A stretch of 64,000 bases of DNA from positions 7,091 through 71,090 of the forward strand of contig CAKKPE010000107.1 in the NCBI GenBank assembly GCA_919901565.1, in the 5' to 3' direction. Each line of letters starts with the position of its first letter. Position 1 is the stretch's first letter. The DNA is from a bacterium (lineage in GTDB: Bacteria; CG2-30-53-67). Shown in pieces: positions 5,109-56,153 of the stretch. Position numbers and translations under genes: made by a program. The notes below the pieces were generated by a model. It did not search any database and was not told the origin of the DNA. It saw only the letters and a list, made by a program, of their open reading frames with translations.

Positions 5109-5825
5109 ATGCTGGGCAGAGAGATCAGGGGCAGGGTATCCGGGTTGCTGCTGTTTGCTTTTTTTCTTTTGTTCCACCTTCGGTATCTCGTCCAGAGATG
5201 GCATCTATTCGATCGGGTGGCCAGGCTGAACAGCCTGCTGATCACATTGACCATTATATTATTCCTGTCCGCGTATCTGATCCGGAAAAGGGCGGTTGAG
5301 TTTCCCCATGGATTTATGGAAACGGGATATCCCCTTGTGTGCGCGGCCCTTCCGCTCATCATTTATCACAATGTGGAGATATTGCATTACATCTCCACGG
5401 ACAGCCGGATTTACAGTCCTCTGAGCAGGTTTCTGGGTTTATACAGGCACCACCTGCTGGGATGGAATCTCTGCTCGATGACGCTGATCATCGCCGGCAA
5501 TCTGATCACGCTATCGGGCATGGTCTTTCTGAAGCGGTCTTTCAGTATCATGGTCGAGGCCAGGGCGCCTGTGTATCGCGGGATATACGCCTATATACGG
5601 CATCCCCTCTACCTCGGCGAAATTGTTGCGACGGTGGGGGTCCTCATATTCAGGTTCTCAATCATCAATATCATTCTGACCCTGCTTTTTGTTTTAGGCC
5701 AGAGAATCAGGGCAGGCATTGAAGAGAAAAAGCTTATTCATGCTTTTCCTGAGTATCTTGAATACAGAAGAAAGACAGGCGGGTTTTCCCCTAAGTGGCC
5801 CTATTACGATAATAGGGCCACTTAG
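5109..5825 (+). CDS. Isoprenylcysteine carboxyl methyltransferase / phospholipid methyltransferase family membrane protein
   Basis: Multi-pass hydrophobic profile with the RHPLYLGEIVATVGVLIFRFS motif typical of ICMT/PEMT. The last 12 codons are supplied by the palindrome at 5797-5829. Confidence 0.7.
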   Translation: MLGREIRGRVSGLLLFAFFLLFHLRYLVQRWHLFDRVARLNSLLITLTIILFLSAYLIRKRAVEFPHGFMETGYPLVCAALPLIIYHNVEILHYISTDSRIYSPLSRFLGLYRHHLLGWNLCSMTLIIAGNLITLSGMVFLKRSFSIMVEARAPVYRGIYAYIRHPLYLGEIVATVGVLIFRFSIINIILTLLFVLGQRIRAGIEEKKLIHAFPEYLEYRRKTGGFSPKWPYYDNRAT

Positions 5826-5829
5826 TTTG
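5797..5829. repeat. Perfect 13-bp-stem palindrome AAGTGGCCCTATT-acgat-AATAGGGCCACTT; short member of a palindromic element family
   Basis: Read directly. The same AAGTGGCCCTATT…CCACTTAG termini bound the long palindrome at 27864-28027. Confidence 0.7.
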
Positions 5830-5830
5830 G

Positions 5831-8083
5831 TTAATTGTCTGTAATGCTTACCTTGTTCATGATCACATCAGACAAAGGTTTATCGTTGGTGTCGGTATCC
5901 ACGAGGCCGATGGCCTGTACCACGTCCATGCCTTCCACTTCCACCACACGTCCGAAGACCGTATGGACGCCGTCCAGCCAGGGTGTTGCAGCCAGTGTGA
6001 TAAAGAACTGGCTGCCGCCCGTATTGGGCCCGGAGTTGGCCATGGAGAGAATGCCGGGCCCATCGTGTTTCAAAAGAAGATTGCCTGAATCGTCTTTTGG
6101 GAACTCGTCAATGATCTTGTATCCGGGGCCTCCGGTCCCGTTCCCATTGGGGTCGCCTCCCTGAATCATGAAATTTTCGATCACACGATGGAAAATCAAC
6201 TCATCGTAGTACCCGGTTTGCGCCAAATGGATGAAGTTCCTTGTGGTCAGAGGGACGAGGTCTTCAAAGAGCTCAAGCTTGACCGTGCCGTAGTTTGTTT
6301 CGATAACGGCAAACCGGTTGGGCGGAAGGCTGTCCGGCACGAAGTCGCCATCTGTATCTATGGCCGTACGTTCATCCAGCGGGAAAGGATCATCCGCATC
6401 CATGACCCCATCACCATCATCGTCAGGATCAACGTCGTTATTCTTCCCGTCGTTATCGGTATCCAGAGAGCGAGAAACACCATCATCCGTCTTGTCCGTG
6501 TCATCCGTGATCCCATCATAGTCGTCGTCGAGATCGGCATTGTTCCCGATCCCGTCCCCGTCGGTATCAAGACTTTCAGCCGGGTCGAGCGGGAAGGCAT
6601 CGTCCGCATCCAATACGCCGTCATTGTCGTCATCCGTATCGGCGTTGTTTCCGATGCCGTCCCCGTCGGTATCCAGACTTTCAGTCGGGTCCAGGGGGAA
6701 GGCATCGTCCGCATCCAATACGCCGTCATTGTCGTCATCAGGGTCCAAGATATTATCTATACCGTCATTGTCCGTATCGAGCGGGTAAATGTCAGTTATG
6801 TCCGGTATTCCATCTCCGTCGTCATCGAGGTCGGCGTTGTTCCCGATGCCGTCGCTGTCGGTATCCAGACTTTCAGCCGGGTCCAGCGGGAAGGCATCGG
6901 CTGCATCCAATACGCCGTCATTGTCGTCATCCGTATCGGCGTTGTTTCCGATGCCGTCTTTATCCGTATCCAAGCTCTCAGACGGATCCTGGGGGAAGGC
7001 ATCTTTGCTGTCCATAATTCCGTCTCCGTCGCTGTCAGGCCCTGTCTCAATCTTTACAAGATGAACGCCCTTGTCAGAGTCTGCCGTAACCAATCTGTCT
7101 CCGTCAACCAGCAGATCTATACAAGACCCTGGCGTATCCAGGCGGGCAGCAAAGGATGGCGCTGTGATATCTTTTATGTTTACGGCCTGAATGCCATTGC
7201 TGCCGTTGGCAATATACGCGTAATCGCCCTGAATTTTTATCTTGTAGGAATACTGGCTATTGGGATTAGAAGCATTATCCGTAAACGCGAGTGAAGATAC
7301 AAACGATGGATAAGTGCTTTTGATATTGTATATGGAAAGCCCGCTCCCTTGCCCTGCCATAAGGAGGTAGTCTCCATATTTTTCCAAAGTTGATATATTG
7401 TACCCGATATCGATTTGCTGAATGATTTGCGTGTAGGCCGGTTCGGAGATCGATATCATATCCAGGCCATTATCATTGGCTGCGACATAAGCCCCGTTGT
7501 TTGATAGAGCCGACTGCAAGAAAGCACTGTTTCCCTGAATCTGTCCCAGAAGGACCGGCGCCGTTGGAGCACTGATGTCGAGTATACTGAAAGAGTTCAT
7601 TCCGCTTATATATAGAGTATTCCCCTCGATGGAGAGATAATTTATGCTATCCGTGTTGAAAGAGGATACCATGATAGGGGAGCTTGGATTGGATATATCA
7701 ATGACCAGCAATCCATCAGAAGCTGTACCCAAATACAGATAGTTCCCTGATTTGGCTAAAGCAACGGCTTCACCGGTATTGATTTTAAGGGATCCGATCT
7801 CTTCTAATTTTGAGTTATTTGAAATTTTCAGGACAAGCAGTCCGGCGGAACCATCAGCCACGTAGATGTAGTTCCCGTCCTTCAGCAGGGAATAACTTGC
7901 ACCGGATGTATCGTAGGTGTCCAGAATTGAAAGGGCCATGACTTGGTTCGGCTCCGATGCTTCGGCAACGGTTGTAGGGGCATTGGATGAGCCTCCACCG
8001 CCACCGGAACAGCCGAGCATGAAAAGGGCGATAGATGTTAAAAGCCATGCGCTGAGGCTGAGTTTCGTTAAATAATTGCGCAT
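5831..8083 (-). CDS. Lipoprotein with LVIVD beta-propeller repeats, thrombospondin type-3 calcium-binding repeats and a C-terminal cyclophilin-type peptidyl-prolyl isomerase domain
   Basis: Lipobox [11 protein letters not shown]. Repeated GxYxY/LVxD blades. More than 12 DxDxDGxxDxxD TSP3 units. The C-terminus has [15 protein letters not shown]…[15 protein letters not shown]…VFGRVVEGMDVV, a cyclophilin motif. Confidence 0.8.
6330..7060. repeat. Tandem, near-identical DNA repeats encoding the TSP3 units
   Basis: Blocks such as ccgtcggtatccagactttcag…gggtccag recur every 90-130 bp. The antisense ORFs are correspondingly repetitive. Confidence 0.65.
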
Positions 8084-14252: not shown

Positions 14253-15689
14253 TTATCTTTCGAGGGGCCATTTATATGTGAAGAGCAAGGCGACCACGTC
14301 CCGTTCGGTCCGGGGGGGCGTCACAGCACCCTGCAGATCTCTCTTCTGTACGGTATGATTCCATGAAAGGGAACTTGAGAGGTTGCGGGTCATGGAGTAG
14401 CTGAAGCCGGTGCCGATTCGAAGGGTATGATAATTATCTTGTAAAGAGTCCGATTCATTTTTATTCTGGCTATAACGGCCGTTCAAAAAGGCGCTTAACC
14501 GGGCTGAGAGGCGGTGGTTATATTTGGCGCCGTAAGACCGGATGACCGATGTCCCCCCATAGGCGGCTCGTTGATTGGTACTCTGGTCGAATGACAGGGA
14601 GAGATCTGAACCCTGAAATGTCTTATCAACGGTGAGATTGTAAATCAATCCGGAACTTTTCTGCGAATCCTCGCTGACGGGTTTTATTGCTGCGCCGGGG
14701 ATGTTAATCAGTTTGCCGGTCAAGGCCACTGCAGGGAAGGGTTGAGGAATTGAATCTATGGTATAGTAGACAAGACTTCCGTCCGGAAGATCATGAGGGA
14801 CCTCCACTCCTCCTCCGGCTACAAGGGAGAGATTTTTTGTGATATCTTCTGTCTTTCTTGTGCCGATGTATAGGGAGGCATTCAGGGTGGATGAGAAGTG
14901 GTGCGTCCATCCGATATAGGCGGACTTGTTTTCAGACCGGTCAAACTCGGAGTTGAAAAAGAGTCCAAAAGATAAACTCCCGCTAAATGGATTATATCCT
15001 AAAGGGCTGTACAGTGCGTTTTGTTTTAACTCCAGATCGCTTCTTTCATAGTTAGAGGTGTTTGCGGAAATCGAGGTGAAGATGGTATTCAGGGGATCTA
15101 AAATATAGTTGAACGTGAAAGCCCCTTGTTTGCCGGAGGAGTCATATAGAGTAGGAATGGAATAACGGGACAAGGAGTCGGTAGCGCTCAGGCTGATGGA
15201 GGCCTTGGGTGAAAGGGAGTATTCCATGGATCCGGTCAGCGAATTGGAATCATTTCTGACTTTTTCCACGATGATGTCCGACGCTATATTGCTGTCCTCG
15301 CTTCTCAGGAGTCTATCCGAATCCTTCATACTGGCGAAACTGTCTGACAGAGATAAACGAAGGCGTTGTGTCAGGTTGTGCGAGGCATTCAGGGTGATGT
15401 AATGGTTGCCATAGTTATTCTCCGGGAGCGAAAAATATTCAAATCGGGTGGTCCGGTAGCTGAGATTCAGATCCGTGGCCGGTGATGTAGCATGAACGGG
15501 GAGTGTAATCGTGCCCTGATAGTTGAAGTCGCTTTGTTCATTGGATTGACTCCAATAGACATTATTATCGTATTCCAGGCCGAGCGAGGCAGTGGGGATG
15601 AAGGTGTAATTCCATTCAGCATGGGACTGAAAGGCCGTGGCCGTCTGGATCATGCAAAACAGGAATGACCAGAGAATTGTTTTTTTCAT
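14253..15689 (-). CDS. Putative outer-membrane beta-barrel protein
   Basis: Signal peptide starting MKKTILWSFLFCMIQTATA from the ATG at 15689 (GGGG ribosome-binding site). Long alternating-hydrophobicity, Ser/Asn-rich sequence typical of beta-barrel proteins. Confidence 0.5.
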   Translation of the reverse strand: MKKTILWSFLFCMIQTATAFQSHAEWNYTFIPTASLGLEYDNNVYWSQSNEQSDFNYQGTITLPVHATSPATDLNLSYRTTRFEYFSLPENNYGNHYITLNASHNLTQRLRLSLSDSFASMKDSDRLLRSEDSNIASDIIVEKVRNDSNSLTGSMEYSLSPKASISLSATDSLSRYSIPTLYDSSGKQGAFTFNYILDPLNTIFTSISANTSNYERSDLELKQNALYSPLGYNPFSGSLSFGLFFNSEFDRSENKSAYIGWTHHFSSTLNASLYIGTRKTEDITKNLSLVAGGGVEVPHDLPDGSLVYYTIDSIPQPFPAVALTGKLINIPGAAIKPVSEDSQKSSGLIYNLTVDKTFQGSDLSLSFDQSTNQRAAYGGTSVIRSYGAKYNHRLSARLSAFLNGRYSQNKNESDSLQDNYHTLRIGTGFSYSMTRNLSSSLSWNHTVQKRDLQGAVTPPRTERDVVALLFTYKWPLER

Positions 15690-15711
15690 CGTTACCCCTT
15701 TTTGAGAATTT

Positions 15712-15962
15712 GGTTCATTCGTGTTTAAATTGAACCAGTCAGAAATCAGAATCAAAGATCAAAAACGGGCAAGACATAGTAGCACCCGATTACGAATGAC
15801 TCGGTAGATCTTCCCGTTCAATCGAAAGTCAATAAACTTGAGCCATAAAAAAGCCCGTCTCAGAACCCGTATTGGTATTCATTTTTAATTTTTACTTTGC
15901 CATTTTGATTTTTGATTCTTTATTTAATCTCTATCGCTGTTCAACTTTCTTGCGAAAGAACC
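15712..15962 (-). repeat. Foldback intergenic element, copy A (short variant with internal deletion)
   Basis: Shares termini ggttcattcgtgtttaaattgaacc…gttcaactttcttgcgaaagaacc and the AT-rich arms aatcaaagatcaaaaa / attttgatttttgattcttt with copies B-E. Confidence 0.8.
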
Positions 15963-15991
15963 CAAAATTTATCAGCAAAGCAGCTCTCTTA

Positions 15992-17068
15992 TTACTTTTG
16001 ACATGGGTCTTTCGCCGAGGCTTTCAGCCACCGTTCTGCCGGGAGATAAACCGCCCGCCTGGACATCGAGGACTGGTAGAGCCGGTTCATGAACCGCCAG
16101 GGGTCTCCTCTTGTGGTCCCCCGGATCACAAACCGGTGGGCCAGTGTGCCGAGCCACTGGAACAGGTATCGGTTCGAGAGCGATGTATAGAGTTGCTTTG
16201 CAAAGGCCTCTTTCCAGAGGGAATTATAGTCCGCTCCATATATGATGCTTCGGGCGGCCAGATATCCGGAGGTCAGTGCATACCGGATCCCGAAACCAAA
16301 GAGAAAATCCTGGAATCCTGCAGCCTCTCCCACGTAGAGCCGATGATGACGGGCAGCGTTACGGGCCGGAAAGTAGCTGCCGTAACCGGTAAACCGCCGC
16401 CCCCCCTCCATGGAAAATGGGCGGATCTTCTGGAAAACCTCGATGCTCCGGTCAAGGTAGTCAGGCCCGTTTTTAAAGTCTTTGAAATAAACGCTCGCCA
16501 GCGTCGCCTGCCCCTGCCGGACAAGAAGGTAGGCATATCCCCAGGGCGCTATCCGGTTGTCCAGGTAAGCCATGATGGTATCATCAAGATCGGTCTGGAA
16601 CAACACGCCGCTGGCCATGGTATTGGGCTTTCCGGGGCCGGTCGCGATGATGTCCCCCTGGTCCGGGTTCATCCGCTGGTTGAATAGAAGAGAGACCCCT
16701 GCCTCCCGGGCCTGTTTTTCCAATGAACGGTCCAGGCTCCCTTCCATGGGGCCCCGAAGGGTAAGGTAGAAGAGAGGCCTTTGTGAATTCACGGTCCCTC
16801 CGATACCTCCCCGCATAAAGAACTCTCCCCGCGTATAGGGCTGACAGAGGAAGTCGGTACGGATCGACATCCCCTGAAGCGCAGAAAGGAAGTCCTCGCC
16901 GGTGCTCCAGTTTTCAATTCCCTGGAAATCCCCGCGGAAACGCATTCCCACGTCCGGGTTCCTCTCGAATACCGTAACGCCATACCCCGCATGGGCCAGA
17001 TGCACGGCCGCGCACAGCCCTGCCGGGCCGGCCCCGATGATCCGGATCATTTTATTCGTTTTTTTCAT
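15992..17068 (-). CDS. FAD-dependent oxidoreductase, geranylgeranyl-reductase-like family
   Basis: IRIIGAGPAGLCAAVHLA Rossmann motif. About 360 aa. The ATG at 17068 is preferred over the track's alternative TTG at 17074. Confidence 0.75.
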   Translation of the reverse strand: MKKTNKMIRIIGAGPAGLCAAVHLAHAGYGVTVFERNPDVGMRFRGDFQGIENWSTGEDFLSALQGMSIRTDFLCQPYTRGEFFMRGGIGGTVNSQRPLFYLTLRGPMEGSLDRSLEKQAREAGVSLLFNQRMNPDQGDIIATGPGKPNTMASGVLFQTDLDDTIMAYLDNRIAPWGYAYLLVRQGQATLASVYFKDFKNGPDYLDRSIEVFQKIRPFSMEGGRRFTGYGSYFPARNAARHHRLYVGEAAGFQDFLFGFGIRYALTSGYLAARSIIYGADYNSLWKEAFAKQLYTSLSNRYLFQWLGTLAHRFVIRGTTRGDPWRFMNRLYQSSMSRRAVYLPAERWLKASAKDPCQK

Positions 17069-17385
17069 GTCCAATTTGAACCACGCAGAGATTGGGAATC
17101 AAAGTATTTCCTGCACGCATTAAGAATCAAAGATCAAAAATAAAAAATCAAAATGACAAATCAAAATATAAAAATTGTGCATCCCCTCTTGGAAAGCCTG
17201 CCCTGGATTCAAGACACAGGATCCCAAACAGGCAAGATGCCGAAACACCCCCTTGTATCGCACGGCATTAAACTCGAGTCATAAAAGTGTCCATCTCAGA
17301 ACCCGTCTTGATATTTTTTTTATTTTTACTCCGTTATTTTGATTTTTGATTCTTTATATTTAATTTTTTATAGCCGTCGCTGTAT
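17063..17385 (-). repeat. Foldback intergenic element, copy B
   Basis: Left terminus ttttcatgtccaatttgaaccacgcag, the conserved core cctcttggaaagcctgccctggattcaagaca, and the AT-rich inverted arms. Its right arm supplies the last ~17 codons of nadE. Confidence 0.8.
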
Positions 17386-19142
17386 TTGTTCGTAATCGGC
17401 AGCCTGCGTCCTGAGCCGAAGGCCCTGGGTGTAATACGGATGCCCGGGGCCGCCTGTTGGCGTTTGTACTCGTTTTTATCGATCATCCGTATGATCTTAT
17501 GAACGGTTTTCCTGTCATAACCGAGATCCACGATCTCTGAGGCGGATTCATCCAGTTCCACATAGGCGTGCAGGATTCCGTCCAGGATCTCATAGTCCGG
17601 AAGGGTATCCGAGTCCTTCTGTCCGGGAGAAAGCTCCGCCGAAGGAGGTTTGGTCAGGATTCGTTCCGGGATCACCGGTTTTTTGGCAAGGCTGTTTCTG
17701 TAGCGGGCGAGTTGATAGACCATGGTTTTGGGCACATCGGAAATCAGGGCCAGACCCCCGGCCATGTCTCCGTAGAGGGTGGCATAGCCCACTCCCACTT
17801 CGGATTTGTTCCCCGTGCTGATGACCAGGTAGCCGAACTTGTTGGACAGGGCCATGAGGATCATCCCTCGGATCCGTGCCTGGATGTTTTCTTCGGTGAC
17901 GTCTTTTTTCCTGCCCTTGAAGACACTGGAAAGTGTCGCCATAAAGGCGTCATGGATATCGTGGATCGGGATGAGCTTCAACGGGATGCCCAGGTTCCCG
18001 GCCAGAATTTTTGCATCCTCCACGCTTTCCATGGAGGAGATCCTGCTCGGCATGGAGACCCCGACCACATGATCGGCTCCAATGGCGTCCACGGCCAGGG
18101 TTGCCGTCAGGGCTGAGTCGATCCCACCGGAGATCCCGATGACGACTTTCTTGAAGTCGTTTTTCCGCGCATAATCCGATAGACCGAGCTTGAGCGCCGC
18201 ATAGACCTCTTCGTAGGGATGATAGTCTTCATGGGCCTCATGCAGCTGGAAGGGGTTCTCTCTGGTGCCGAGTTTCTTTTTGCATGCGCCTTTATCGGCG
18301 CAGCGGGTGATCCCCTTGGAAGATATGACCGTCAAAACCTTGCCGCTCATTTTGGCTTCTAACGCCCTCCGGCGGTTCCGGGGGTTTTTCAGCCGGTCGT
18401 GGCGGACATCCTCCAGGGCCAGGCCGGATACAATCAGGTCTTCCTCAAAGGCCTTGCCGAGGGATATCAGGTGTCCCTGCTGGTCGGCAACCATGCTCCT
18501 GCCGTCAAAGACCAGGTCGTCCTGGCCGCCGACCATGTTGTTGAACATCAGGATGACGAGGCTATCCTTGGCCCTCGCGGCGATCATCTCGCGTCTTATG
18601 CCCGCCTTGCCGGCATGAAAGGGCGATGCCGAGATGTTGACCACGAGTTCGGCTCCGTTCCGGGCCAGTTCCACGGCCGGTCCGTCCGGGAACCAGATGT
18701 CCTCACAGATTGTGACCCCGAAAAGGGCGCAGTCCAGATCAAACAGAAAACTTTGGGTCCCTTGCTGAAAATAGCGGTGCTCATCGAATACATCATAGTT
18801 CGGAAGAAAGATCTTGTGCTGGGTGCCGATCCATTTCCCGTCATGCAGGACAGCGGCGGCGTTGTAGAGATCATCCGTGTAGTCCACAAATCCCACAATC
18901 ACACAGATCCCTTTTGTCTCCGGAAGGAGCTTCAGCAGGCATTCCCGGTTCTGCCGGATAAAGCTCGGTTTCAACAAAAGATCCTTGGGCGGGTACCCGG
19001 TTACGGCCAGTTCCGGGAACGAGAGGATCTGAACTCCCTTTTTACGGGCAGCCCGAATCCACTGGATAATTTTTTTACAGTTTCCCTCCAGGTCCCCAAC
19101 CACCGGGTTGATCTGCGCCATTCCCACGCGGAGGCATCTCAT
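17334..19142 (-). CDS. nadE: Glutamine-dependent NAD+ synthetase (N-terminal CN-hydrolase domain + NAD synthase domain)
   Basis: MAQINPVVGDLEGN… nitrilase-like N-terminus and the SGGIDSALTATLAV PP-loop. The C-terminus KKLNIKNQKSK is read out of repeat copy B. Confidence 0.85.
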   Translation of the reverse strand: MRCLRVGMAQINPVVGDLEGNCKKIIQWIRAARKKGVQILSFPELAVTGYPPKDLLLKPSFIRQNRECLLKLLPETKGICVIVGFVDYTDDLYNAAAVLHDGKWIGTQHKIFLPNYDVFDEHRYFQQGTQSFLFDLDCALFGVTICEDIWFPDGPAVELARNGAELVVNISASPFHAGKAGIRREMIAARAKDSLVILMFNNMVGGQDDLVFDGRSMVADQQGHLISLGKAFEEDLIVSGLALEDVRHDRLKNPRNRRRALEAKMSGKVLTVISSKGITRCADKGACKKKLGTRENPFQLHEAHEDYHPYEEVYAALKLGLSDYARKNDFKKVVIGISGGIDSALTATLAVDAIGADHVVGVSMPSRISSMESVEDAKILAGNLGIPLKLIPIHDIHDAFMATLSSVFKGRKKDVTEENIQARIRGMILMALSNKFGYLVISTGNKSEVGVGYATLYGDMAGGLALISDVPKTMVYQLARYRNSLAKKPVIPERILTKPPSAELSPGQKDSDTLPDYEILDGILHAYVELDESASEIVDLGYDRKTVHKIIRMIDKNEYKRQQAAPGIRITPRAFGSGRRLPITNKYSDGYKKLNIKNQKSK

Positions 19143-33063: not shown

Positions 33064-33111
33064 CTCTTCCCTAATGACGGGCCATGCTGTCTTGAGGCCT
33101 GATTTAATGTC

Positions 33112-33467
33112 TTTTTCATGTTTAAGTTGAACCACGCAAAAATTGGAAATTAAAATTTTTTTTGCAAGCTTAAGAATCAAAGATCAAAAATCAAAATTAC
33201 AAATCAAAATATAAAAATGGCTCAGCCTCTTTTGGAAAGCCTGGCTTGGATTCAAGACATGAACTCCCAAACGGGCATAACGCCCAAGCACCCGATTACA
33301 AATGACTCTATCTCCCCCTTCTATCGCACTTCAATAAACTCGCGTTACAAAAAAGTTAATCTCAGAACCATCCTTTAATATTCATTTCTGATTTTTACTT
33401 TGTCATTTTGATTGTTGATTCTTTATCTTTAATTTCTATAACCGTTAAACTTTCTTATGAAAGAACC
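33112..33467 (-). repeat. Foldback intergenic element, copy C (full length)
   Basis: Termini ttttcatgtttaagttgaacc…ccgttaaactttcttatgaaagaacc, core cctcttttggaaagcctggcttggattcaagacatgaactcccaaacgggca, and 70-bp AT-rich inverted arms. Confidence 0.85.
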
Positions 33468-34071: not shown

Positions 34072-35880
34072 ATGACAAAACGTAAGGATTTGAGAAACAT
34101 TGCGATTATTGCCCATGTGGACCACGGCAAGACAACACTGGTGGACTGGATGTTAAGGCAGGCCGGGACCTTCCGGGCCAATGAAAAAGTCCAGGAACGC
34201 GTGATGGACAATATCGACCTGGAGCGGGAACGCGGGATTACGATCATGGCAAAAAATGCGGCGGTTGAATACAAAGGGGTAAAGGTCAATATCGTCGATA
34301 CGCCTGGCCATGCGGATTTTGGAGGAGAGGTGGAAAGGACCCTGAAGATGGTGGACGGGGTGCTCCTTCTGGTGGACGCCTCGGAAGGCCCCCTCCCCCA
34401 GACAAGGTTTGTGCTCAAGAAAGCCCTGGAGCTCAAATTGCCGCCCATTCTGGTCATCAACAAGATTGACCGGCCTGATGCGAGGATTAAAGAAGTATTG
34501 AATGAGGTCTATGACCTGTTTATCGACCTGGACGCTACAGAAGAACAGCTTGAGTTTCCCGTGATTTACACAAATGCCAAAAAAGGGATTGCAAAATACC
34601 ACATGGAAGACGAATCCGAAGACTTAAGGCCTCTTCTTGATCTGATACTCAAGACTATCCCGGAGCCTGAAGGCGACCTTGACGGGATCTTGCAGCTCCT
34701 TGTCACCAATATCGGCTACAACGACTACGTGGGACGACTGGCCATCGGAAGGATCTTTTCAGGGACCTTGAAGGTCGGGGACCCGGCCACCGTGGTGAAT
34801 CATGATGGCGATGAAATCAAAACAAAGATCACATCGATTCATACATTCCAGGGACTCGAACGCCAGGAGGTGCAAGAGGCCTCGGTTGGCGACATTGTCG
34901 CCCTTTCAGGGATAGAAGGAATCAACATCGGCGATACCATTACAGACGCTGAAAGGCCGAAGCCTCTTCCAAGGATTATTGTGGACGAGCCGACCATATC
35001 CATGGTCTTTTCTGTGAACACATCCCCTCTTGCCGGCAAGGAGGGGAAATATGTCACGTCAAGGCACATCAGGGAGAGGCTCGAGAAGGAACTGCTCTAC
35101 AATGTTTCCATAAGGGTGGACTTCGAAAATACAGACGCGTTCAAGGTCATGGGGCGCGGCGAATTACAGCTCGCCATTCTGATCGAGATGATGAGGCGGG
35201 AGGGGTATGAGCTTTCCGTATCCATGCCCGAAACCATCACCAGGGAGATCAACGGCGTCCTGCAGGAGCCCATGGAACTCCTGGTCGTGGATGTGCCTGA
35301 AGAATACGTCGGGGTCATCACCCAGCAGGTCGGGATGAGAAAAGGCAGGATGTTGAAGATGCAGAATAACGGGCACGGCAGGGTCAGGGTCGAATTCAGG
35401 ATCCCGTCACGGGGACTGATCGGTTTCCGCTCCCAGTTCCTGACAGACACGAGGGGGACCGGCCTTTTAAATCACCTTTTTGACGGATATGAACCGTGGC
35501 ACGGGCCCATCACCAAAAGAAAGACCGGCGCCCTCGTTGCAGACAGGGCCGGACGGACGACCACCTATGCCCTCTTTCACCTGCAGCCGAGGGGGACGCT
35601 TTTCATAAAGGAGAACACGCAGGTTTATGAAGGGATGATCATTGGTGAAAATTCCAGGGAAAAAGATATTGATGTCAATGCCACGAAAGAAAAGAAGCTG
35701 ACCAACATGCGTGCATCGGGTGCGGATGATGCGCTTCAGCTGATCCCTCCGAGGATTTTAAGCCTTGAGCAAGCCATCGAATTTATCAAGGAAGATGAGC
35801 TTGTGGATATCACGCCACTATCCTTGAGGCTGAGGAAGAAGATCCTGGATGTCCATAAGCGGCCGAAAGCCAGGGAATGA
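34072..35880 (+). CDS. typA: Translational GTPase TypA/BipA
   Basis: [29 protein letters not shown]. About 600 aa. ATG at 34072 after GGGAAAGAGGA. Confidence 0.9.
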
Positions 35881-35894
35881 GACGGATTTTGCTT

Positions 35895-35980
35895 TATAGA
35901 AATGAAAGATAAAGAATCAAAATTTTATTTTTTGATTTGTCATTTTGATTTTTAATCTTTGATTCTTGATTCTCAATGTG
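35895..35980. repeat. Foldback element copy E: minimal form, AT-rich inverted arms only, sited between the convergent typA and PPIase genes where it can act as a bidirectional terminator
   Basis: aagaatcaaaattttattttttgatttgtcattttgatttttaatctttgattctt carries the family arm motifs gtcattttgattttt and aagaatcaaa. Confidence 0.65.
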
Positions 35981-36120
35981 TGCAAGAACTGCTCTGTTTT
36001 CCAAAACATCGCTAAGCAAAATCAGATAAATGCCGGATCGACCCCTGGAAAGACGTCTATGAAGAGGTCCTTTGGTGCCGGAACCGGCGTTTATGGCAGC
36101 CTGTGGTTAATCGGGAGCCC

Positions 36121-37360: not shown

Positions 37361-37436
<76 letters not shown>

Positions 37437-42943: not shown

Positions 42944-43510
42944 TTAGGAGAGAAAGGCCTCACGCTCATCCGGGGTGATCTCCACCTCTTCAGAGGCCTT
43001 GCCTTTTCGGAAAGGGTGCAGGCCCGCCATCTCATTCACATTCGAGTCCTGTTTTTTCAGTTCCGTGTGGAACCTTTCCATATAGAGAAATTTCTGGCCA
43101 AGAACTTCAAAACAGCGATATTGATAGAGAAGATGGATGTGGAGAGGGGCTGCCCTGAGAAATCTTTTCATAAGCAAAGGGAATTCCGGGTAGATCAGGG
43201 CAGCCCCGGGGGGGACGGTTTTTCTTAAATCAAGGCTCGGAAACAACTGCCGAAGTACGGAGAGGTTTTTTGTAAACCAGTCCAACTGGGCATCGGCATT
43301 CAACAGGGCGTTTTCATCGGGCTTGATGTCTGCAAAGATGAGCAGGGGCCTCTCCTCGTTATCCTTCGCCACCAGATCGATCAAGGGGAACTCTTCATCC
43401 CCGATTGGACCGCCAAGGATTTCAACCCCCTCTTCAATCATGGATGCAGTGTTTTTGATGAGTTCTATCAGGTCCTTTTTTTTATTCAGTTGGATGTGTT
43501 TAAAGGACAT
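42944..43510 (-). CDS. Hypothetical protein (188 aa), third gene of the ParA-CBM48 cluster
   Basis: Start overlaps the upstream gene's stop by 11 nt. No recognisable domain. Confidence 0.5.
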   Translation of the reverse strand: MSFKHIQLNKKKDLIELIKNTASMIEEGVEILGGPIGDEEFPLIDLVAKDNEERPLLIFADIKPDENALLNADAQLDWFTKNLSVLRQLFPSLDLRKTVPPGAALIYPEFPLLMKRFLRAAPLHIHLLYQYRCFEVLGQKFLYMERFHTELKKQDSNVNEMAGLHPFRKGKASEEVEITPDEREAFLS

Positions 43511-44390
43511 GAGCCTTCTCTATGGAACGTAGTCTCTGGTCATGATCATCTATGATCAATCTGCTGATATTATAAATATGCCTTCGCATTTCAGAGGTGG
43601 ACCATTTCAAGACCAATGGAACCCCTTCAGCCATGGACTTTCCTATTTCTTCACATTTCTGAATGAAGGCGTAGCTGAGCAGATCCTTTTGAAGGAACCG
43701 TTTTGTATTTCCGGCCATTCGGGAAAATGCATCGGATGCATCCTGCTCGCCTTTTTCTGATAAAACAATCAGGCCGATCTGAATCTGCCGGGCTTTTTGA
43801 TGGAGAGCCTTGATCACAGAGTAGGATTCAAGCATGCCTGTCCGGTCTGTCGGGGCAATGACCATGAAGAGGGATATCTGGCGGAGCATGGCCCCCAGTT
43901 CTTCCAAGCGATTGTATGGGATGTGAAAAATAATAAAATCAAATTTCTGGTACTCTTCAGGCCAGGGATAACGATTGCCATTCTGATGGATATCCCTGTA
44001 AGACAGGAGATGACTGAGAAAGGGGGTGCGGTAGGTCGTCCTGACGCCCATGGGGGCATGGATCAGGATGGGTTCGGCAGCGTTTTCAATGTCCATCAGC
44101 CCCATCAGCCGGGTTACATTCAAATTTCCCGGATCATCGTCCACCACCAGTACCCGATACCCTTGCCTGGCCAACTCGATGGAAATGTTGCAGATGGCGA
44201 ATATCCCCATGGTGTCCATAGGCCCGCCCGTGATGCCGATGGTTTGGATCTCAGGCATGGCCTGACGCTTTGCATCAAACTCAGGCACGCTGCGATCAAG
44301 AGGAATGTCGGTCACAGTTTTTGAGGATTCAGCAGAGAAGAATACATCGGATATTTCCTCGAGCCCTCTTCCCAACCTCCTCCCTTTCAT
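43500..44390 (-). CDS. Degenerate ParA/MinD-fold protein (Walker A lysines lost: ITGGPMDTMG) with an N-terminal ParB-like GRGL peptide (MKGRRLGRGLEEI); putative partner/adaptor of the upstream ParA-CBM48 ATPase
   Basis: AAGGAG ribosome-binding site. The N-terminus resembles the ParA-stimulating N-peptide of ParB/Spo0J (GLGRGLxAL). The body aligns with MinD/ParA topology (…YRVLVVDDDP…) but lacks the KGGxGKT P-loop. Confidence 0.55.
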   Translation of the reverse strand: MKGRRLGRGLEEISDVFFSAESSKTVTDIPLDRSVPEFDAKRQAMPEIQTIGITGGPMDTMGIFAICNISIELARQGYRVLVVDDDPGNLNVTRLMGLMDIENAAEPILIHAPMGVRTTYRTPFLSHLLSYRDIHQNGNRYPWPEEYQKFDFIIFHIPYNRLEELGAMLRQISLFMVIAPTDRTGMLESYSVIKALHQKARQIQIGLIVLSEKGEQDASDAFSRMAGNTKRFLQKDLLSYAFIQKCEEIGKSMAEGVPLVLKWSTSEMRRHIYNISRLIIDDHDQRLRSIEKAHVL

Positions 44391-47284: not shown

Positions 47285-47304
47285 GTGTGCACCTTTAAAA
47301 AATT

Positions 47305-47607
47305 ACTCTCTTTCGTGTTTAAGTTGAAACGCTCAGAAATTGGAAGTTAAAGTATTTTTTGCACGCCTTAAGAATCAAAGATCAAAGATAAAAAATCAAA
47401 ATGGCAAATCAAAATATAAAAATGGCGCGGCCTCTTTTGAAAAGCCTGCCCTGGATTCAAGACATGAGTTCCCAATCGGGCAAGAAGCCGAAGCACCCGA
47501 ACCCGTCTTGATATTCATTTTTTATTTTTACTCTGTCATTTTGATTTTTGATTATTAATTTTTTATCTTTAACTTCTATACCCGTTCAACTTTCTTACGA
47601 AAGAACC
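47305..47607 (-). repeat. Foldback intergenic element, copy D, inserted between the histidine kinase and its response regulator
   Basis: Termini tctctttcgtgtttaagttgaaacg…cccgttcaactttcttacgaaagaacc, core cctcttttgaaaagcctgccctggattcaagacatgagttcccaatcgggcaag, and AT-rich inverted arms. Confidence 0.85.
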
Positions 47608-47612
47608 AAAAA

Positions 47613-49757
47613 TTATATAGCGGATCTTGTCCTGTGAATATCTTCCTGATAATCGCTATCAAACTTATCTGCCACGGGCAAATGAATGGTAAACCGTGTC
47701 CCCTTCCCGGCTTCACTGGACAGGAATATTTTTCCCTGATGGTTTTCGATGATTTTGCTGACTACGGAAAGCCCAAGTCCGGTTCCCTGTTCCTTTGTGG
47801 TAAAGAAGGGGTTGAACACCTTATTCAGGTCTCCCTCTGGAATTCCGATTCCAGTATCTTCGAAGATGATTTCGATCTGATTCACTTCCGGCAGATAACG
47901 CGTGGCGATCTCCAGGGAATCCCCCTGGTCCATGGCCTGGATGGCGTTCAGGATCAGGTTCAGAAACATCTGGTGCATCTGGTGCTCGTCCGCCATGACC
48001 AGAGGGAGGTCCGGTGCAAGGTTTTCATGGATGCAGATTCTATTCTTTTCTATCTGCAAGGCGGCCATCTGGATGGTTCCGCTAATCAGTTTGTTGATCG
48101 TCTGCGGTTTGAACTGCGGAGGTCTCGGCCGGGCGAATTCCAGAAAATCACTGATCACATCGTTCAAACGGTCGACCTCTTCCAGAATGACCGAACAAAG
48201 TTCGTCAAATCTCGGGGCCTGGGAGAGCGAATCCCTCTTGAGGATACCGGCCGCTCCCTTGATGATTCCCAGCGGGTTGCGGATCTCGTGGGCAATTCCT
48301 GCAGAAAGCTCCCCCATGGCTGCAAGGCGGTCCTGCCTCCGGATATGTTCCTTGAGCGCCTGGATTTCGGTGAGGTCCCGGATCAGGACAACCAGTCCGG
48401 TTTTAGAACCTGCGGATTTGCCGGGGTCATCCAGCGGGGAGAGGCTCAGTTCGATCGGGATGATAGCCCCGTCTTTTCTATGAAGCACGGTTTCCAGCCC
48501 CTCCTTGATCCGGCGGTTCTCGAGGCCATTCTGTATCAATTCGAGGATCAACGGGTCCTGATCAAAAACCACGGATATCTTTTCGCCTACAATTTTGTCC
48601 CCAGGCAAGTGCAGAATATTTTCGGTCGAGTGGTTTATTCTAATAATGCGCGCATCCGGATCAATGGTCATCACACCATTTAGGAGACTGCGAAGAATGT
48701 TCTCGGTATAGCTCTGGTTCTCCACAAGCTTGGCGATGGTCTCCTTGAGACGGTCAGTCATGAGGTTGAAGGATTCGGCAAGCTCTCCGATCTCGTCCCG
48801 GCTGTGGACCTGTATCTTCTGGTTGTAATCGCCGGCGCTGATGGCCCTGACCCCGTTTGATAACCGAACGATGGGCCAGGAGATCCCCGTGCCCAAAGCG
48901 GATCCGGCAATGACGGAGAGGAGAACGCCGATAAGGATCAGGATATAGTAGAAGCGGGTTGAGGCGAGTTTCCGGCTCAGGGTTTCAGAAGCGGATATCC
49001 CGTTGAATAAAATATATGATACGCGGCCATCCGCATCGGGCAGGGGTGTTAAAAGCGCATGATACTCTTCTTCCTTACCCTCAAGTCTGATTCTGGAATA
49101 CTTGGTGAATGCCTGGTGGCCGTTGATCGCCACCTTTTCCAGGATGTCCTCGGGAATATCCAGCTTTGCTTTTGTCTCTATGGAGAAGTAACCTCCGGAA
49201 GGGTCCTGTTTGAAAAACATGGACTCCACGCCGGTCACGCTCTTTAGGTCATTAAGAAACTCATTGTCCAGGGGGTAGCCGGTCATGATGGTTCCGATGG
49301 AACGCCCCTGGTCAGATACAGGAAGCAGAAAGACCAGGAGGGGCCATTTTTCATTGCCCGATTGTGTACGCAGAAGGGTCATCCCTTCCGCCGGATTTTT
49401 AGGGCGTGCGAACTTCTCCCCCGTGCTGGCGAAGATCATGGTGTTTTCATGGTTAAAAAGGTAAACCTGCAGAGGCGTATCAAACCAGAGGAATTTTATG
49501 TTCACTCCGCCCTGGATGACTTTTCTGAGCCTCGGGTCCCCGGAAAGGGAACGGGCCACTCCCTCGAGCTCGGTCTTCTTTCGGGCAATCAGATAAACGG
49601 CTGATTTCCCCGCATAGTTGATACGTTCCTCAATCCCTTTCTCAAGCCTGCCTGAAGCGATCTTGACCCCGATATATGTGGCGACAAGCATGGGGAAGAC
49701 GCCGATGATAATGAAGGCTGCGATCAATTTAATTCGTATGGAGAAACGCGTCATCAT
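47613..49757 (-). CDS. Sensor histidine kinase (periplasmic sensor, HAMP, PAS, HisKA, HATPase_c)
   Basis: Two TM segments flanking a periplasmic domain of about 250 aa, the H-box LSAGIAHEIRNPL, and N/G1/G2 boxes. Confidence 0.8.
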   Translation of the reverse strand: MMTRFSIRIKLIAAFIIIGVFPMLVATYIGVKIASGRLEKGIEERINYAGKSAVYLIARKKTELEGVARSLSGDPRLRKVIQGGVNIKFLWFDTPLQVYLFNHENTMIFASTGEKFARPKNPAEGMTLLRTQSGNEKWPLLVFLLPVSDQGRSIGTIMTGYPLDNEFLNDLKSVTGVESMFFKQDPSGGYFSIETKAKLDIPEDILEKVAINGHQAFTKYSRIRLEGKEEEYHALLTPLPDADGRVSYILFNGISASETLSRKLASTRFYYILILIGVLLSVIAGSALGTGISWPIVRLSNGVRAISAGDYNQKIQVHSRDEIGELAESFNLMTDRLKETIAKLVENQSYTENILRSLLNGVMTIDPDARIIRINHSTENILHLPGDKIVGEKISVVFDQDPLILELIQNGLENRRIKEGLETVLHRKDGAIIPIELSLSPLDDPGKSAGSKTGLVVLIRDLTEIQALKEHIRRQDRLAAMGELSAGIAHEIRNPLGIIKGAAGILKRDSLSQAPRFDELCSVILEEVDRLNDVISDFLEFARPRPPQFKPQTINKLISGTIQMAALQIEKNRICIHENLAPDLPLVMADEHQMHQMFLNLILNAIQAMDQGDSLEIATRYLPEVNQIEIIFEDTGIGIPEGDLNKVFNPFFTTKEQGTGLGLSVVSKIIENHQGKIFLSSEAGKGTRFTIHLPVADKFDSDYQEDIHRTRSAI

Positions 49758-55595: not shown

Positions 55596-55715
55596 GAGGT
55601 CCCCTTTTCCCCTGACCAGGAATCATGCCGAAAAGACTGCCGGGATCACCGAAGGCGGTGAGGCCAAAGTTTTTGGTTCTTCTCCTATTTAGTGGGTAAA
55701 AAGGGTTCGAGGATT

Positions 55716-55802
55716 CCAGGGTTCAAGGGGTCAAGTGAAATACTGAAACGCAAGCAAAATCTCCAAAGAAAAACACTGGAACCCTTGACCCCTTGAACCC
55801 TG
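55716..55802. promoter_or_regulatory. Long stem-loop (19-bp perfect stem CCAGGGTTCAAGGGGTCAAG / CTTGACCCCTTGAACCCTG, 48-nt loop) in the permease leader/promoter region
   Basis: Read directly, 120-200 nt upstream of the permease start. Confidence 0.5.
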
Positions 55803-56153
55803 ATGTTTTCACCCACTCTTTTGGATATGATCCAAACTTTTATATCAAGGTTTTAGAAAAACTTCAAGGAAAAACAGGCAGAGGGCATTTGGGGTACTGT
55901 GGGCCAATTCACATTGATGCTCAGCATTTGGGGTTCACCGAGGATGGTTCTGATAGCCCCCATCTCCCAGCTTCAGAAAAATATTGTAACTCTGGGATTC
56001 TAACAGCAATACCGTTCAGTTAAGATGGAGTTATCCCCGAATGCCTCTATCGGGGATATGGTTTTTCAGGCAGTTTAAACCAGATTCCCGCTCAGAATCG
56101 TTGCGGGAATGACAAAATTCGTGACCGATTATCCTTAAATGAACAGTCAGCAC

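Follow-up and report, generated by a model that had tools for sequence, protein, structure and literature searches.

A foldback miniature element at the junction of the NadE and oxidoreductase genes in an uncultured Nitrospirota-like lineage

How do two copies of one short repeat come to stand on either side of a single gene, and what has happened where one of them runs into coding sequence at both ends? The question is raised by a 64,000-nt stretch of bacterial DNA (contig CAKKPE010000107.1 of assembly GCA_919901565.1, positions 7,091 to 71,090; hereafter the window), in which two direct copies of a foldback repeat, A (15712-15962) and B (17058-17377), bracket a gene for a FAD/NAD(P)-binding oxidoreductase (15992-17068, minus strand). 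A preliminary description of this DNA had correctly recognized the bracketing by direct copies of one family. Of the bounds that it gave to the whole unit, 15712-17385, the left one is exact, while the right one lies 8 nt inside native sequence of the adjacent gene, which encodes NadE. [quoted passage not shown]

Coding sequence at both ends of copy B

NadE, a glutamine-dependent NAD+ synthetase (gene at 17334-19142, minus strand; Pfam CN_hydrolase and NAD_synthase), ends within copy B. The native part of the gene, 17378-19142, is collinear with orthologues up to ...AAATACAGCG, and the native sequence CGCTGTAT... starts at 17378. The 3′ end of the gene, 17334-17377, is derived from the element and consists of the TAA stop codon (17334-17336), the 13 codons that precede it (GYKKLNIKNQKSK) and two bases of the codon for Asp589, the reading frame passing through the right subterminal region and the right arm of B. 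NadE reads 14 element-encoded residues (D589-K602) to this TAA, a net extension of 13 residues, and the protein ends ...PITNKYS-DGYKKLNIKNQKSK*. It had been claimed that the element supplies the stop and approximately the last 17 residues. The stop is indeed that of the element, but the number of residues is 14; 17 is obtained by counting from PITN, and three of those are native.

We collected 120 NadE homologues, 114 of them with the PxTN motif, and compared contigs of relatives. The native end of the protein falls 4-5 residues past PxTN in 99 of the 114, as compared with 17 residues in the window. Orthologues overall end in ...KYSV* or ...KYRG*, and the closest element-free ones in ...PITNKYSV*. 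The tail end ...SDGYKKLNIKNQKSK is present in none of the element-free homologues; among all 120, only P0001, which comes from a strain carrying a footprint of the element (see below) and ends in SDGYKN*, shares any part of the tail (DGYK). An alignment with orthologues had been suggested as the test of whether the element rewrote the C-terminus of NadE, and its outcome supports that proposal: orthologues stop at KYSV*, the tail aligns with the element, and no element-free NadE has it. Natural extensions of 9-16 residues after PxTN occur in 8 of the 114 homologues, which suggests that the tail is probably tolerated.

The empty state of the site is preserved in five contigs whose NadE is 87% identical to that of the window, namely L003-L006, which carry a protein named from 'Nitrospirae bacterium CG08_land_8_20_14_0_20_52_24', and L101. 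Here the gene order is FeoB | NadE-oxidoreductase-porin-CNNM, there is no element at the A or the B site, and the NadE and oxidoreductase genes overlap by the tetranucleotide ATGA (...AAATACAGCGTATGAATAA...), the empty site reading ...TACAGCGTATGAATAA.... A more distant relative, L102 (NadE 72% identical), has the same gene order, with a native NadE end, ...KYRG*, followed by a 101-nt spacer. The corresponding minus-strand sequence of the window is ...AAATACAGCG|ACGGCTATAAAAAATTAAAT...[B]...GGTTCAAATTGGACATGAAAAAAAC|GAATAAAATGATCCGG (in shorter form ...TACAGCG|ACGGCTATAAAAAATT...[B]...GGACATGAAAAAAAC|GAATAAAATG); native NadE sequence stops at 17378, and that of the oxidoreductase resumes at about 17057.

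A third state is found in L007, whose NadE is 97% identical to the window protein at the amino-acid level and 95.5% at the nucleotide level. Its site reads ...AAATACAGCG|ACGGCTATAAAAATTAAAC ATGAAAGAGCC|TAATAAAACAATCCGG (in short, ...TACAGCG|ACGGCTATAAAAATTAAAC ATGAAAGAGCC|TAATAAA), a 35-nt footprint in which the two extremities of B are joined after an internal deletion between TTAAA repeats. The footprint shows that L007 and the window strain inherited B from a shared ancestor. It retains an ATG from the terminal repeat (ATGAAAGAGCC, where the repeat consensus is ACGAAAGAACC). The distance between the stop and start codons went from the ancestral ATGA coupling to a 265-nt spacer in the window, and it is 2 nt in L007 after the deletion. 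Taken together, the element-free ATGA overlap at 87% identity and the footprint at 97% argue that the stop/start overlap was the insertion site of B and that B has lost the terminal repeat on its right.

At its left end, copy B provides the start of the oxidoreductase, a Rossmann-fold protein of 358 aa (Pfam NAD_binding_8 and DAO). As the preliminary description had it, the left terminus of B holds the ATG of this gene (17066-17068; CAT on the plus strand), in frame and about 9 nt inside the left terminal repeat. The element-derived segment, ATG AAA AAA AC- (17058-17068, minus strand), adds MKK(T) before the native NK-MIRIIGAG. On the minus strand, the left end of B reads ...GGAC ATGAAAAAAAC|GAATAAAATG, the terminal-repeat consensus there being A(C/T)GAAAGA(A/G)CC, and the native oxidoreductase-side sequence starts at (G)AATAAA, as in L101 and L007. 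The position of the start codon is ACG in copies A and D and ATG in copy C; since the family consensus is ACG, a single transition makes the ATG.

There is also an alternative, ancestral in-frame ATG, Met9 (17048-17050; MIRIIGAG). This codon is ATG in L101 (AAA ATG ATC CGA), ACA in L007 and GAG in L003. Because Met9 is replaced by Thr in L007, no start other than the repeat-derived ATG is available upstream of the Rossmann motif in that strain. We also considered whether the ATG at 17050 evolved as a compensatory start after the insertion; this was rejected, as L101 has the ATG without the element.

Both genes have apparently remained functional. Over codons 9-176 of the oxidoreductase, the window and L007 differ by 14 synonymous and 5 non-synonymous changes, and the two NadE genes show a comparable pattern, with 54 synonymous versus 20 non-synonymous codon differences. 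Judging from these codon differences, the oxidoreductase is still under purifying selection. In annotation, the last 14 residues of the window NadE and the first 3-4 residues of the oxidoreductase represent foreign sequence.

A two-step history, which we infer for copy B, may account for these states. The element would insert into A+T-rich octamers, and in a genome of 52% G+C such octamers would be essentially confined to gene boundaries and spacers. This confinement could explain why the copies lie at stop/start junctions, why the same spacers are hit repeatedly, and why A and B happen to bracket a gene. Copy B would have entered the ATGA overlap by which the two genes are coupled in relatives. 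A deletion of approximately 30 nt would then have removed the right terminal repeat of B, the last codon and stop codon of NadE, and the original ATG of the oxidoreductase. Further decay would proceed by deletions between short repeats, by which copies A and D and a remnant, E, became internally deleted and the L007 copy was reduced to its footprint. The empty, filled and footprint states, at 87%, 100% and 97% NadE identity, respectively, make an unusually complete natural series, which would show a MITE landing on a 4-nt translational-coupling overlap and destroying both the stop and the start codon, with the two genes left functional.

The repeat family and its likely mobilization

A window-wide repeat search combined with direct reading identified four copies of this family (family-1), A-D, and the remnant E in the 64 kb. 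With up to 3 mismatches allowed, the arm 17-mer AGAATCAAAGATCAAAA has 13 matches in the window versus 0.37 expected from shuffles, and a 27-nt core pattern of the repeat has 2 matches versus 0 expected. Copies A-D are 251-359 bp long and 81-87% identical to each other, and their G+C content is 33-36% as compared with 52% for the window. The bounds of the copies were refined by alignment of the terminal repeats and by comparison with element-free orthologous loci.

Copy A (plus strand, 251 bp), aligned to copies B-D, is internally deleted: about 29 nt, and further on about 90 nt, are missing from its left arm and centre. Its terminal repeats, GGTTCATTCGTGTTTAAATTGAAC and the reverse-complemented GGTTCTTTCGCAAGAAAGTTGAAC, agree at 17/24 positions, those of C and D being similar, and it is flanked by the target-site duplication GAGAATTT (15704-15711) and CAAAATTT (15963-15970), which match at 6/8 positions. 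Copy B (plus strand, 320 bp), bounded by reference to the element-free sites of L003 and L101, lacks the right target duplication and, of the terminal repeat on that side, the outer stretch (about 22 nt). The most complete copy is C (33109-33467, plus strand, 359 bp), which occupies the divergent spacer between an ABC-F and a TypA gene and has the target duplication GATTTAAT/GTTTAAAT, again a 6/8 match. Copy D (47306-47607, plus strand, 302 bp), between the genes of a histidine kinase and a sigma-54 response regulator, has a central deletion and a perfect 8/8 duplication, AAAAATTA, at 47298-47305 and 47608-47615; on the minus strand, the right-hand one includes the TAA stop codon of the histidine kinase. 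Remnant E (about 35894-35987, minus strand) consists of two A+T-rich arms joined by a TTTT loop, its centre and termini having been lost. It lies in the opposite orientation between convergent genes, directly after the stop codon (35879-35881) of the TypA/BipA-like GTPase gene.

The ends of the family are terminal inverted repeats of about 24 nt that start GGTTCTTTCG. Aligned copy ends give GGTTC(A/T)TTCGTGTTTAA(G/A)TTGAAC for the left repeat and, reverse-complemented, GGTTCTTTCGTAAGAAAGTTGAAC for the right one. The interior contains two A+T-rich arms of about 45 nt, composed of AATCAAA/GATCAAA heptads and complementary to each other, which enclose a centre of about 140 nt richer in G+C, so that a complete element measures about 350 bp. 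The arms are the best-conserved part, with blocks of 19-24 nt identical between copies. Indels of about 29, 67 and 90 nt distinguish the copies, and the microhomologies that flank deletions are ACCCG in the centre of copy D and CAAA in copy A. Open reading frames (ORFs) within the copies are only short and non-conserved. In copy C, the terminal-repeat ATG (33119-33117, minus strand) starts a 19-codon ORF, MKKTLNQASRQHGPSLGKR*, whose TGA (33062-33060) overlaps the ATG of the ABC-F gene (33063-33061) as ATGA; this ORF could be due to chance or could be a coupled upstream ORF.

The arms are predicted to pair as a foldback in both DNA and RNA folds, and the fold energy of copy A stands out from shuffled controls (z -2.7). 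At gathering score, the only Rfam match in the whole window is a tRNA (37364-37436), and the element itself matches no RNA family; for copy C and its surroundings at E<=1, no match reaches the gathering score, and the best sub-threshold matches lie mostly outside the element. Between 15500 and 17600, promoter- and terminator-like sites do not exceed the counts in shuffles, and no sigma-70 or sigma-54 motif directed towards the downstream genes was convincing.

These properties are those of a MITE. The copies are small and carry no transposase gene. Terminal inverted repeats are present in A, C and D, the right end being missing in B. The target duplication has a fixed length of 8 bp and is A+T-rich in A, C and D, and the same length is found in a sister family, in L077 and at 55675-55833 of the window. 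Copies are dispersed in the window, and partial copies occur at at least four distinct loci of groundwater-metagenome relatives. Presence or absence is polymorphic, both sites being empty in L003-L006 and L101 and one reduced to a footprint in L007. The cleanest evidence of transposition is a nested insertion in L077 (4120-4406), where an element of the second, G+C-richer foldback family (family-2, with ends GGTTCTTCTCCCATTTAGTGGGT) sits inside a right-arm remnant of family-1 and is flanked by a perfect 8-bp duplication, TTAAAATA. We regard the repeats, which behave in a known way, as a new family of MITEs from an uncultured Nitrospirota-like lineage. No literature combining Nitrospirae with MITEs was found. 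The finding changes no general principle, as effects of MITEs on gene ends and gene expression are already well documented.

A non-autonomous element would need a transposase acting in trans on its terminal repeats. Pfam detected no transposase among 18 of the larger window proteins, and the compared loci of relatives contain no pair of these terminal repeats 1-3 kb apart around a transposase. Viral contigs, searched with two terminal-repeat patterns, and plasmids, searched with copy C, gave no matches. A scan with the right-terminus pattern of a genome collection whose species representatives evidently do not include the window's own genome returned 37 loci, nearly all of them chance hairpins of unrelated phyla; only one, L044, is related. 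A metagenome scan with the right-arm pattern gave, among relatives, only partial family-1 copies, consisting of the right arm with the right terminus or of an arm abutting a family-2 end; the full copies were too few for covariation analysis.

The mobilizer is most likely of the ISL3 type, if the ends and duplications are a guide. ISL3 elements have terminal repeats GGCTCTTCGCGG...GGTGAAT and 8-bp direct repeats (PMC6305408, Table 3), and a MITE of Microcystis aeruginosa PCC 7806 with GGCTCTTCG ends and 8-nt duplications has been attributed to ISL3 transposases (PMC11448079). We favour such a transposase for the window family because published ISL3 ends start GGCTCTTCG, because ISL3 transposition duplicates 8 bp, as also seen here, and because the Microcystis MITE is attributed to ISL3 enzymes. 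As compared with that MITE and with ISArsp7 (PMC6305408, Table 3), the window family has a similar start, GG(C/T)TCTT(-/T)CG, and has GTTGAAC near position 18-24 where those have GGTGAAT and GGTTGAT; its 8-bp, A+T-rich target duplication is like that of ISPst2 (TTTTTAAA). Like ISL3-derived MITEs, it is non-autonomous, small and multi-copy. It differs from ISL3 systems in its interior, a long A+T-rich foldback of heptad repeats unlike any IS, in its host, an uncultured Nitrospirota-like lineage, and in the age of its copies, which are 13-19% diverged; no ISL3 transposase with matching ends was found.

Other readings of the locus

Could the fused gene ends have an origin other than the element? 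The tail of NadE could be native, its likeness to the element arm being coincidental, and the eight homologues with extensions after PxTN do indicate that long tails are tolerated. However, the DNA leftwards from 17377 aligns with the right subterminal region and arm of A, C and D, the closest element-free orthologues stop one codon past ...KYS, and only the footprint strain shares anything of the tail, so that coincidence has practically no probability. Nor is it at all probable that an assembler joined the repeat wrongly to NadE and the oxidoreductase. Short-read contigs do break off within the element: in L001 and L002, which are independent and stem from two runs, an identical NadE is followed by 41 nt of B before the contig ends, and another independent contig, L100, starts in the left arm of B. 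Nevertheless, these same contigs cover both junctions. The NadE-B junction in L001 and L002 is identical over the 64 nt aligned, and L100 continues from B through the oxidoreductase and all of copy A into the porin gene. Moreover, the interior of B is about 15% different from C and D, which means that B is not a collapsed copy, and the matching B footprint in L007 comes from another study.

Two further readings accept the fusions and differ about the nature of the repeats. In one of them, A and B form a composite-like cassette that has mobilized the oxidoreductase gene or, as put forward in the preliminary description, that could drive its loss or duplication by homologous recombination. Two direct copies do surround a single gene, and recombination between direct repeats is possible in principle. 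This reading is improbable on several grounds. Comparison of syntenic loci places the oxidoreductase at the same site, between NadE and porin, in relatives at 87% (L003-L006, L101) and 72% (L102) NadE identity that have no family-1 element, so the gene order is ancestral and the gene is not cargo. A composite transposon, made of two IS copies and their cargo, would resemble this locus in having two direct mobile-element copies around one gene; its cargo would be absent in relatives and a single duplication would surround the whole unit. Here the gene is in its ancestral position, copy A has a 6/8 duplication of its own, the outer end of B is truncated, and the copies are separate insertions, neither of which encodes a transposase. 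Furthermore, A and B are 80.8% identical over 213 aligned columns, with a longest identical run of 22 bp. RecA-dependent recombination needs roughly at least 25 bp of perfect identity and is strongly suppressed by such divergence, so the pair is a poor substrate and loop-out or duplication would be rare. Finally, the oxidoreductase is intact and under purifying selection in both strains examined, and the sole rearrangement seen, that in L007, took out the interior of B and not the gene. The other reading sees the repeat not as a transposon but as an intergenic module selected by the host and dependent on orientation, for example a processing or stabilizing hairpin or an array of TCAA(A/G) heptads bound by a protein. 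With respect to the direction of the flanking genes, the five window copies are all oriented alike, the arms are the part that has changed least, the copies are co-transcribed spacers within strings of genes, and a relative has a different foldback element in the same kinase/regulator spacer. We nonetheless find this unlikely, given the terminal inverted repeats and the 8-bp duplications, two of which are perfect (D and L077), and given that presence or absence at exact sites varies among close relatives. The same terminal repeats also surround an unrelated interior in another genome (L044), the copies have large and differing internal deletions, and there is no Rfam family, no excess of promoter or terminator sites and mostly unexceptional fold energy. 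Copies may have been exapted after insertion.

Several observations weigh against our preferred reading, the old and independent MITE insertions. Of the three target duplications that can be tested in the window, that of D alone is perfect, and as all of them are A+T-rich, the chance of a spurious match is increased. The right terminal repeat of B is missing, which makes its insertion point and its secondary deletion reconstructions. A divergence of 13-19% among the copies gives no sign of current mobility. The shared orientation of the five copies relative to local transcription (n = 5, not significant) could hint at a selected, orientation-dependent role. The fold energies of copy C (DNA) and of the B transcript are within the range of shuffles (z -1.35 and -0.43, respectively). 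The oxidoreductase start at 17068 rather than 17050 is a prediction, neither having a Shine-Dalgarno-like motif, unlike the neighbouring genes. An autonomous partner with these terminal repeats was not found in one scan of a genome collection, two viral scans and the window. The link to ISL3 consists of similarity over only about 9 nt of the repeat, where GGTTCTTTCG... resembles GGCTCTTCGCGG... and GGCTCTTCG, of the GTTGAAC/GGTGAAT motif, and of the duplication length; duplications of 8 bp also occur outside ISL3.

Related elements and neighbouring features

Besides the nested L077 element, family-2 is represented in the window by a 159-bp copy at 55675-55833, with ends GGTTCTTCTCCTATTTAGTGGGT and ...CACCCACTCTTTTGGATATGATCC and arms of GGGTTCGAGG/GGTTCAAGGGGTCAAG repeats. 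Its flanks, AAGTTTTT/AAACTTTT, match at 6/8 positions. It has only the GGTTCTT terminus and the architecture in common with family-1, without overall similarity. In L102, the 101-nt hairpin-like spacer (5771-5871) between NadE and the oxidoreductase resembles a family-2 arm, with local scores of 18-23 versus a shuffle mean of about 10 (sd 1.6). In L104 and L105 (2700-3000), whose response regulator is 90% identical to that of the window, the kinase/regulator spacer occupied by copy D in the window holds a family-2 element of about 300 bp. We considered whether copy D and the L104 element represent one orthologous insertion, which was rejected because, despite 90% identity of the flanking genes, the two do not align. 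On these comparisons, the kinase/regulator spacer appears to have been colonized recurrently and independently, and the preference for A+T-rich octamers would explain the presence of different elements there. In L044 (756-982; Nitrospirae bacterium GWC2_57_9), there is an element of about 227 bp whose terminal repeats, GGGTCATTCGTATTTTGTTGAAAAC and ...TTTCAACTTTCTTGCGAAAGAACC, are nearly identical to those of the window family; its interior is unrelated and has an inverted repeat of its own.

Different families are thus found in different lineages at the same NadE/oxidoreductase junction and in the same kinase/regulator spacer. A joint reading of these data, which we regard as doubtful, is that the elements belong to a previously undescribed foldback-MITE superfamily of the uncultured Nitrospirota lineage and that they act as operon-compatible mobile spacers. 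If so, the superfamily would unite the A+T-rich family with the L044 variant and with the G+C-rich sister family, whose ends are GGTTCTTCTCCCATTTAGTGGGT. The arms would be arrays of TCAA(A/G) heptads or octamers, possibly serving as subterminal transposase-binding sites, and the elements would home repeatedly to stop/start junctions of co-transcribed genes. Their tolerance might stem from a terminal repeat that is one transition away from an in-frame ATG, so that the elements could supply a start codon anew, as in copy B, or a coupled upstream ORF, as in copy C. They would then be operon-compatible mobile spacers and not neutral junk.

Some better-known repeats offer parallels. Correia elements of Neisseria and the ERIC/IRU elements of enterobacteria are short elements bounded by inverted repeats that reside in operon spacers, where they are co-transcribed, form long mRNA hairpins and can alter the expression or the ends of neighbouring genes. 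The window family is likewise short, bounded by inverted repeats and located in spacers within or between operons. Unlike the window family, in which none of these features was found, Correia elements duplicate TA, contain IHF sites and have promoters that point outward; the sequences are not similar either. The palindromic elements of Rickettsia (RPE) enter ORFs in frame and have neither terminal inverted repeats nor target duplications. They resemble the present case in that a selfish palindromic repeat is tolerated within the coding sequence of a housekeeping protein; here, by contrast, the element takes the place of the stop codon of one gene and the start codon of the next, where the two meet.

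The gene downstream of the oxidoreductase and copy A encodes a beta-barrel porin-like protein (14253-15689, minus strand) and is followed by a CNNM/CorC transporter gene; FeoB lies upstream on the other strand. The short-read (Logan) contigs L001, L002 and L100 all start or stop within the element's A+T-rich arms, and the repeat family acts as a contig breaker in metagenome assemblies of this lineage. Elsewhere in the window, a gene at 5831-8083, encoding LVIVD repeats and a cyclophilin domain, contains four direct repeats of about 250 nt at 6388-7039 (spacing 105 and 192 nt, identity 65-81%), presumably the protein's own repeats. A 296-aa ORF at 43500-44390 (minus strand) adjoins a ParA-like gene and has no Pfam match at E<=1e-5; its 294-aa counterpart in L104, at the same place, likewise has no Pfam match on record.

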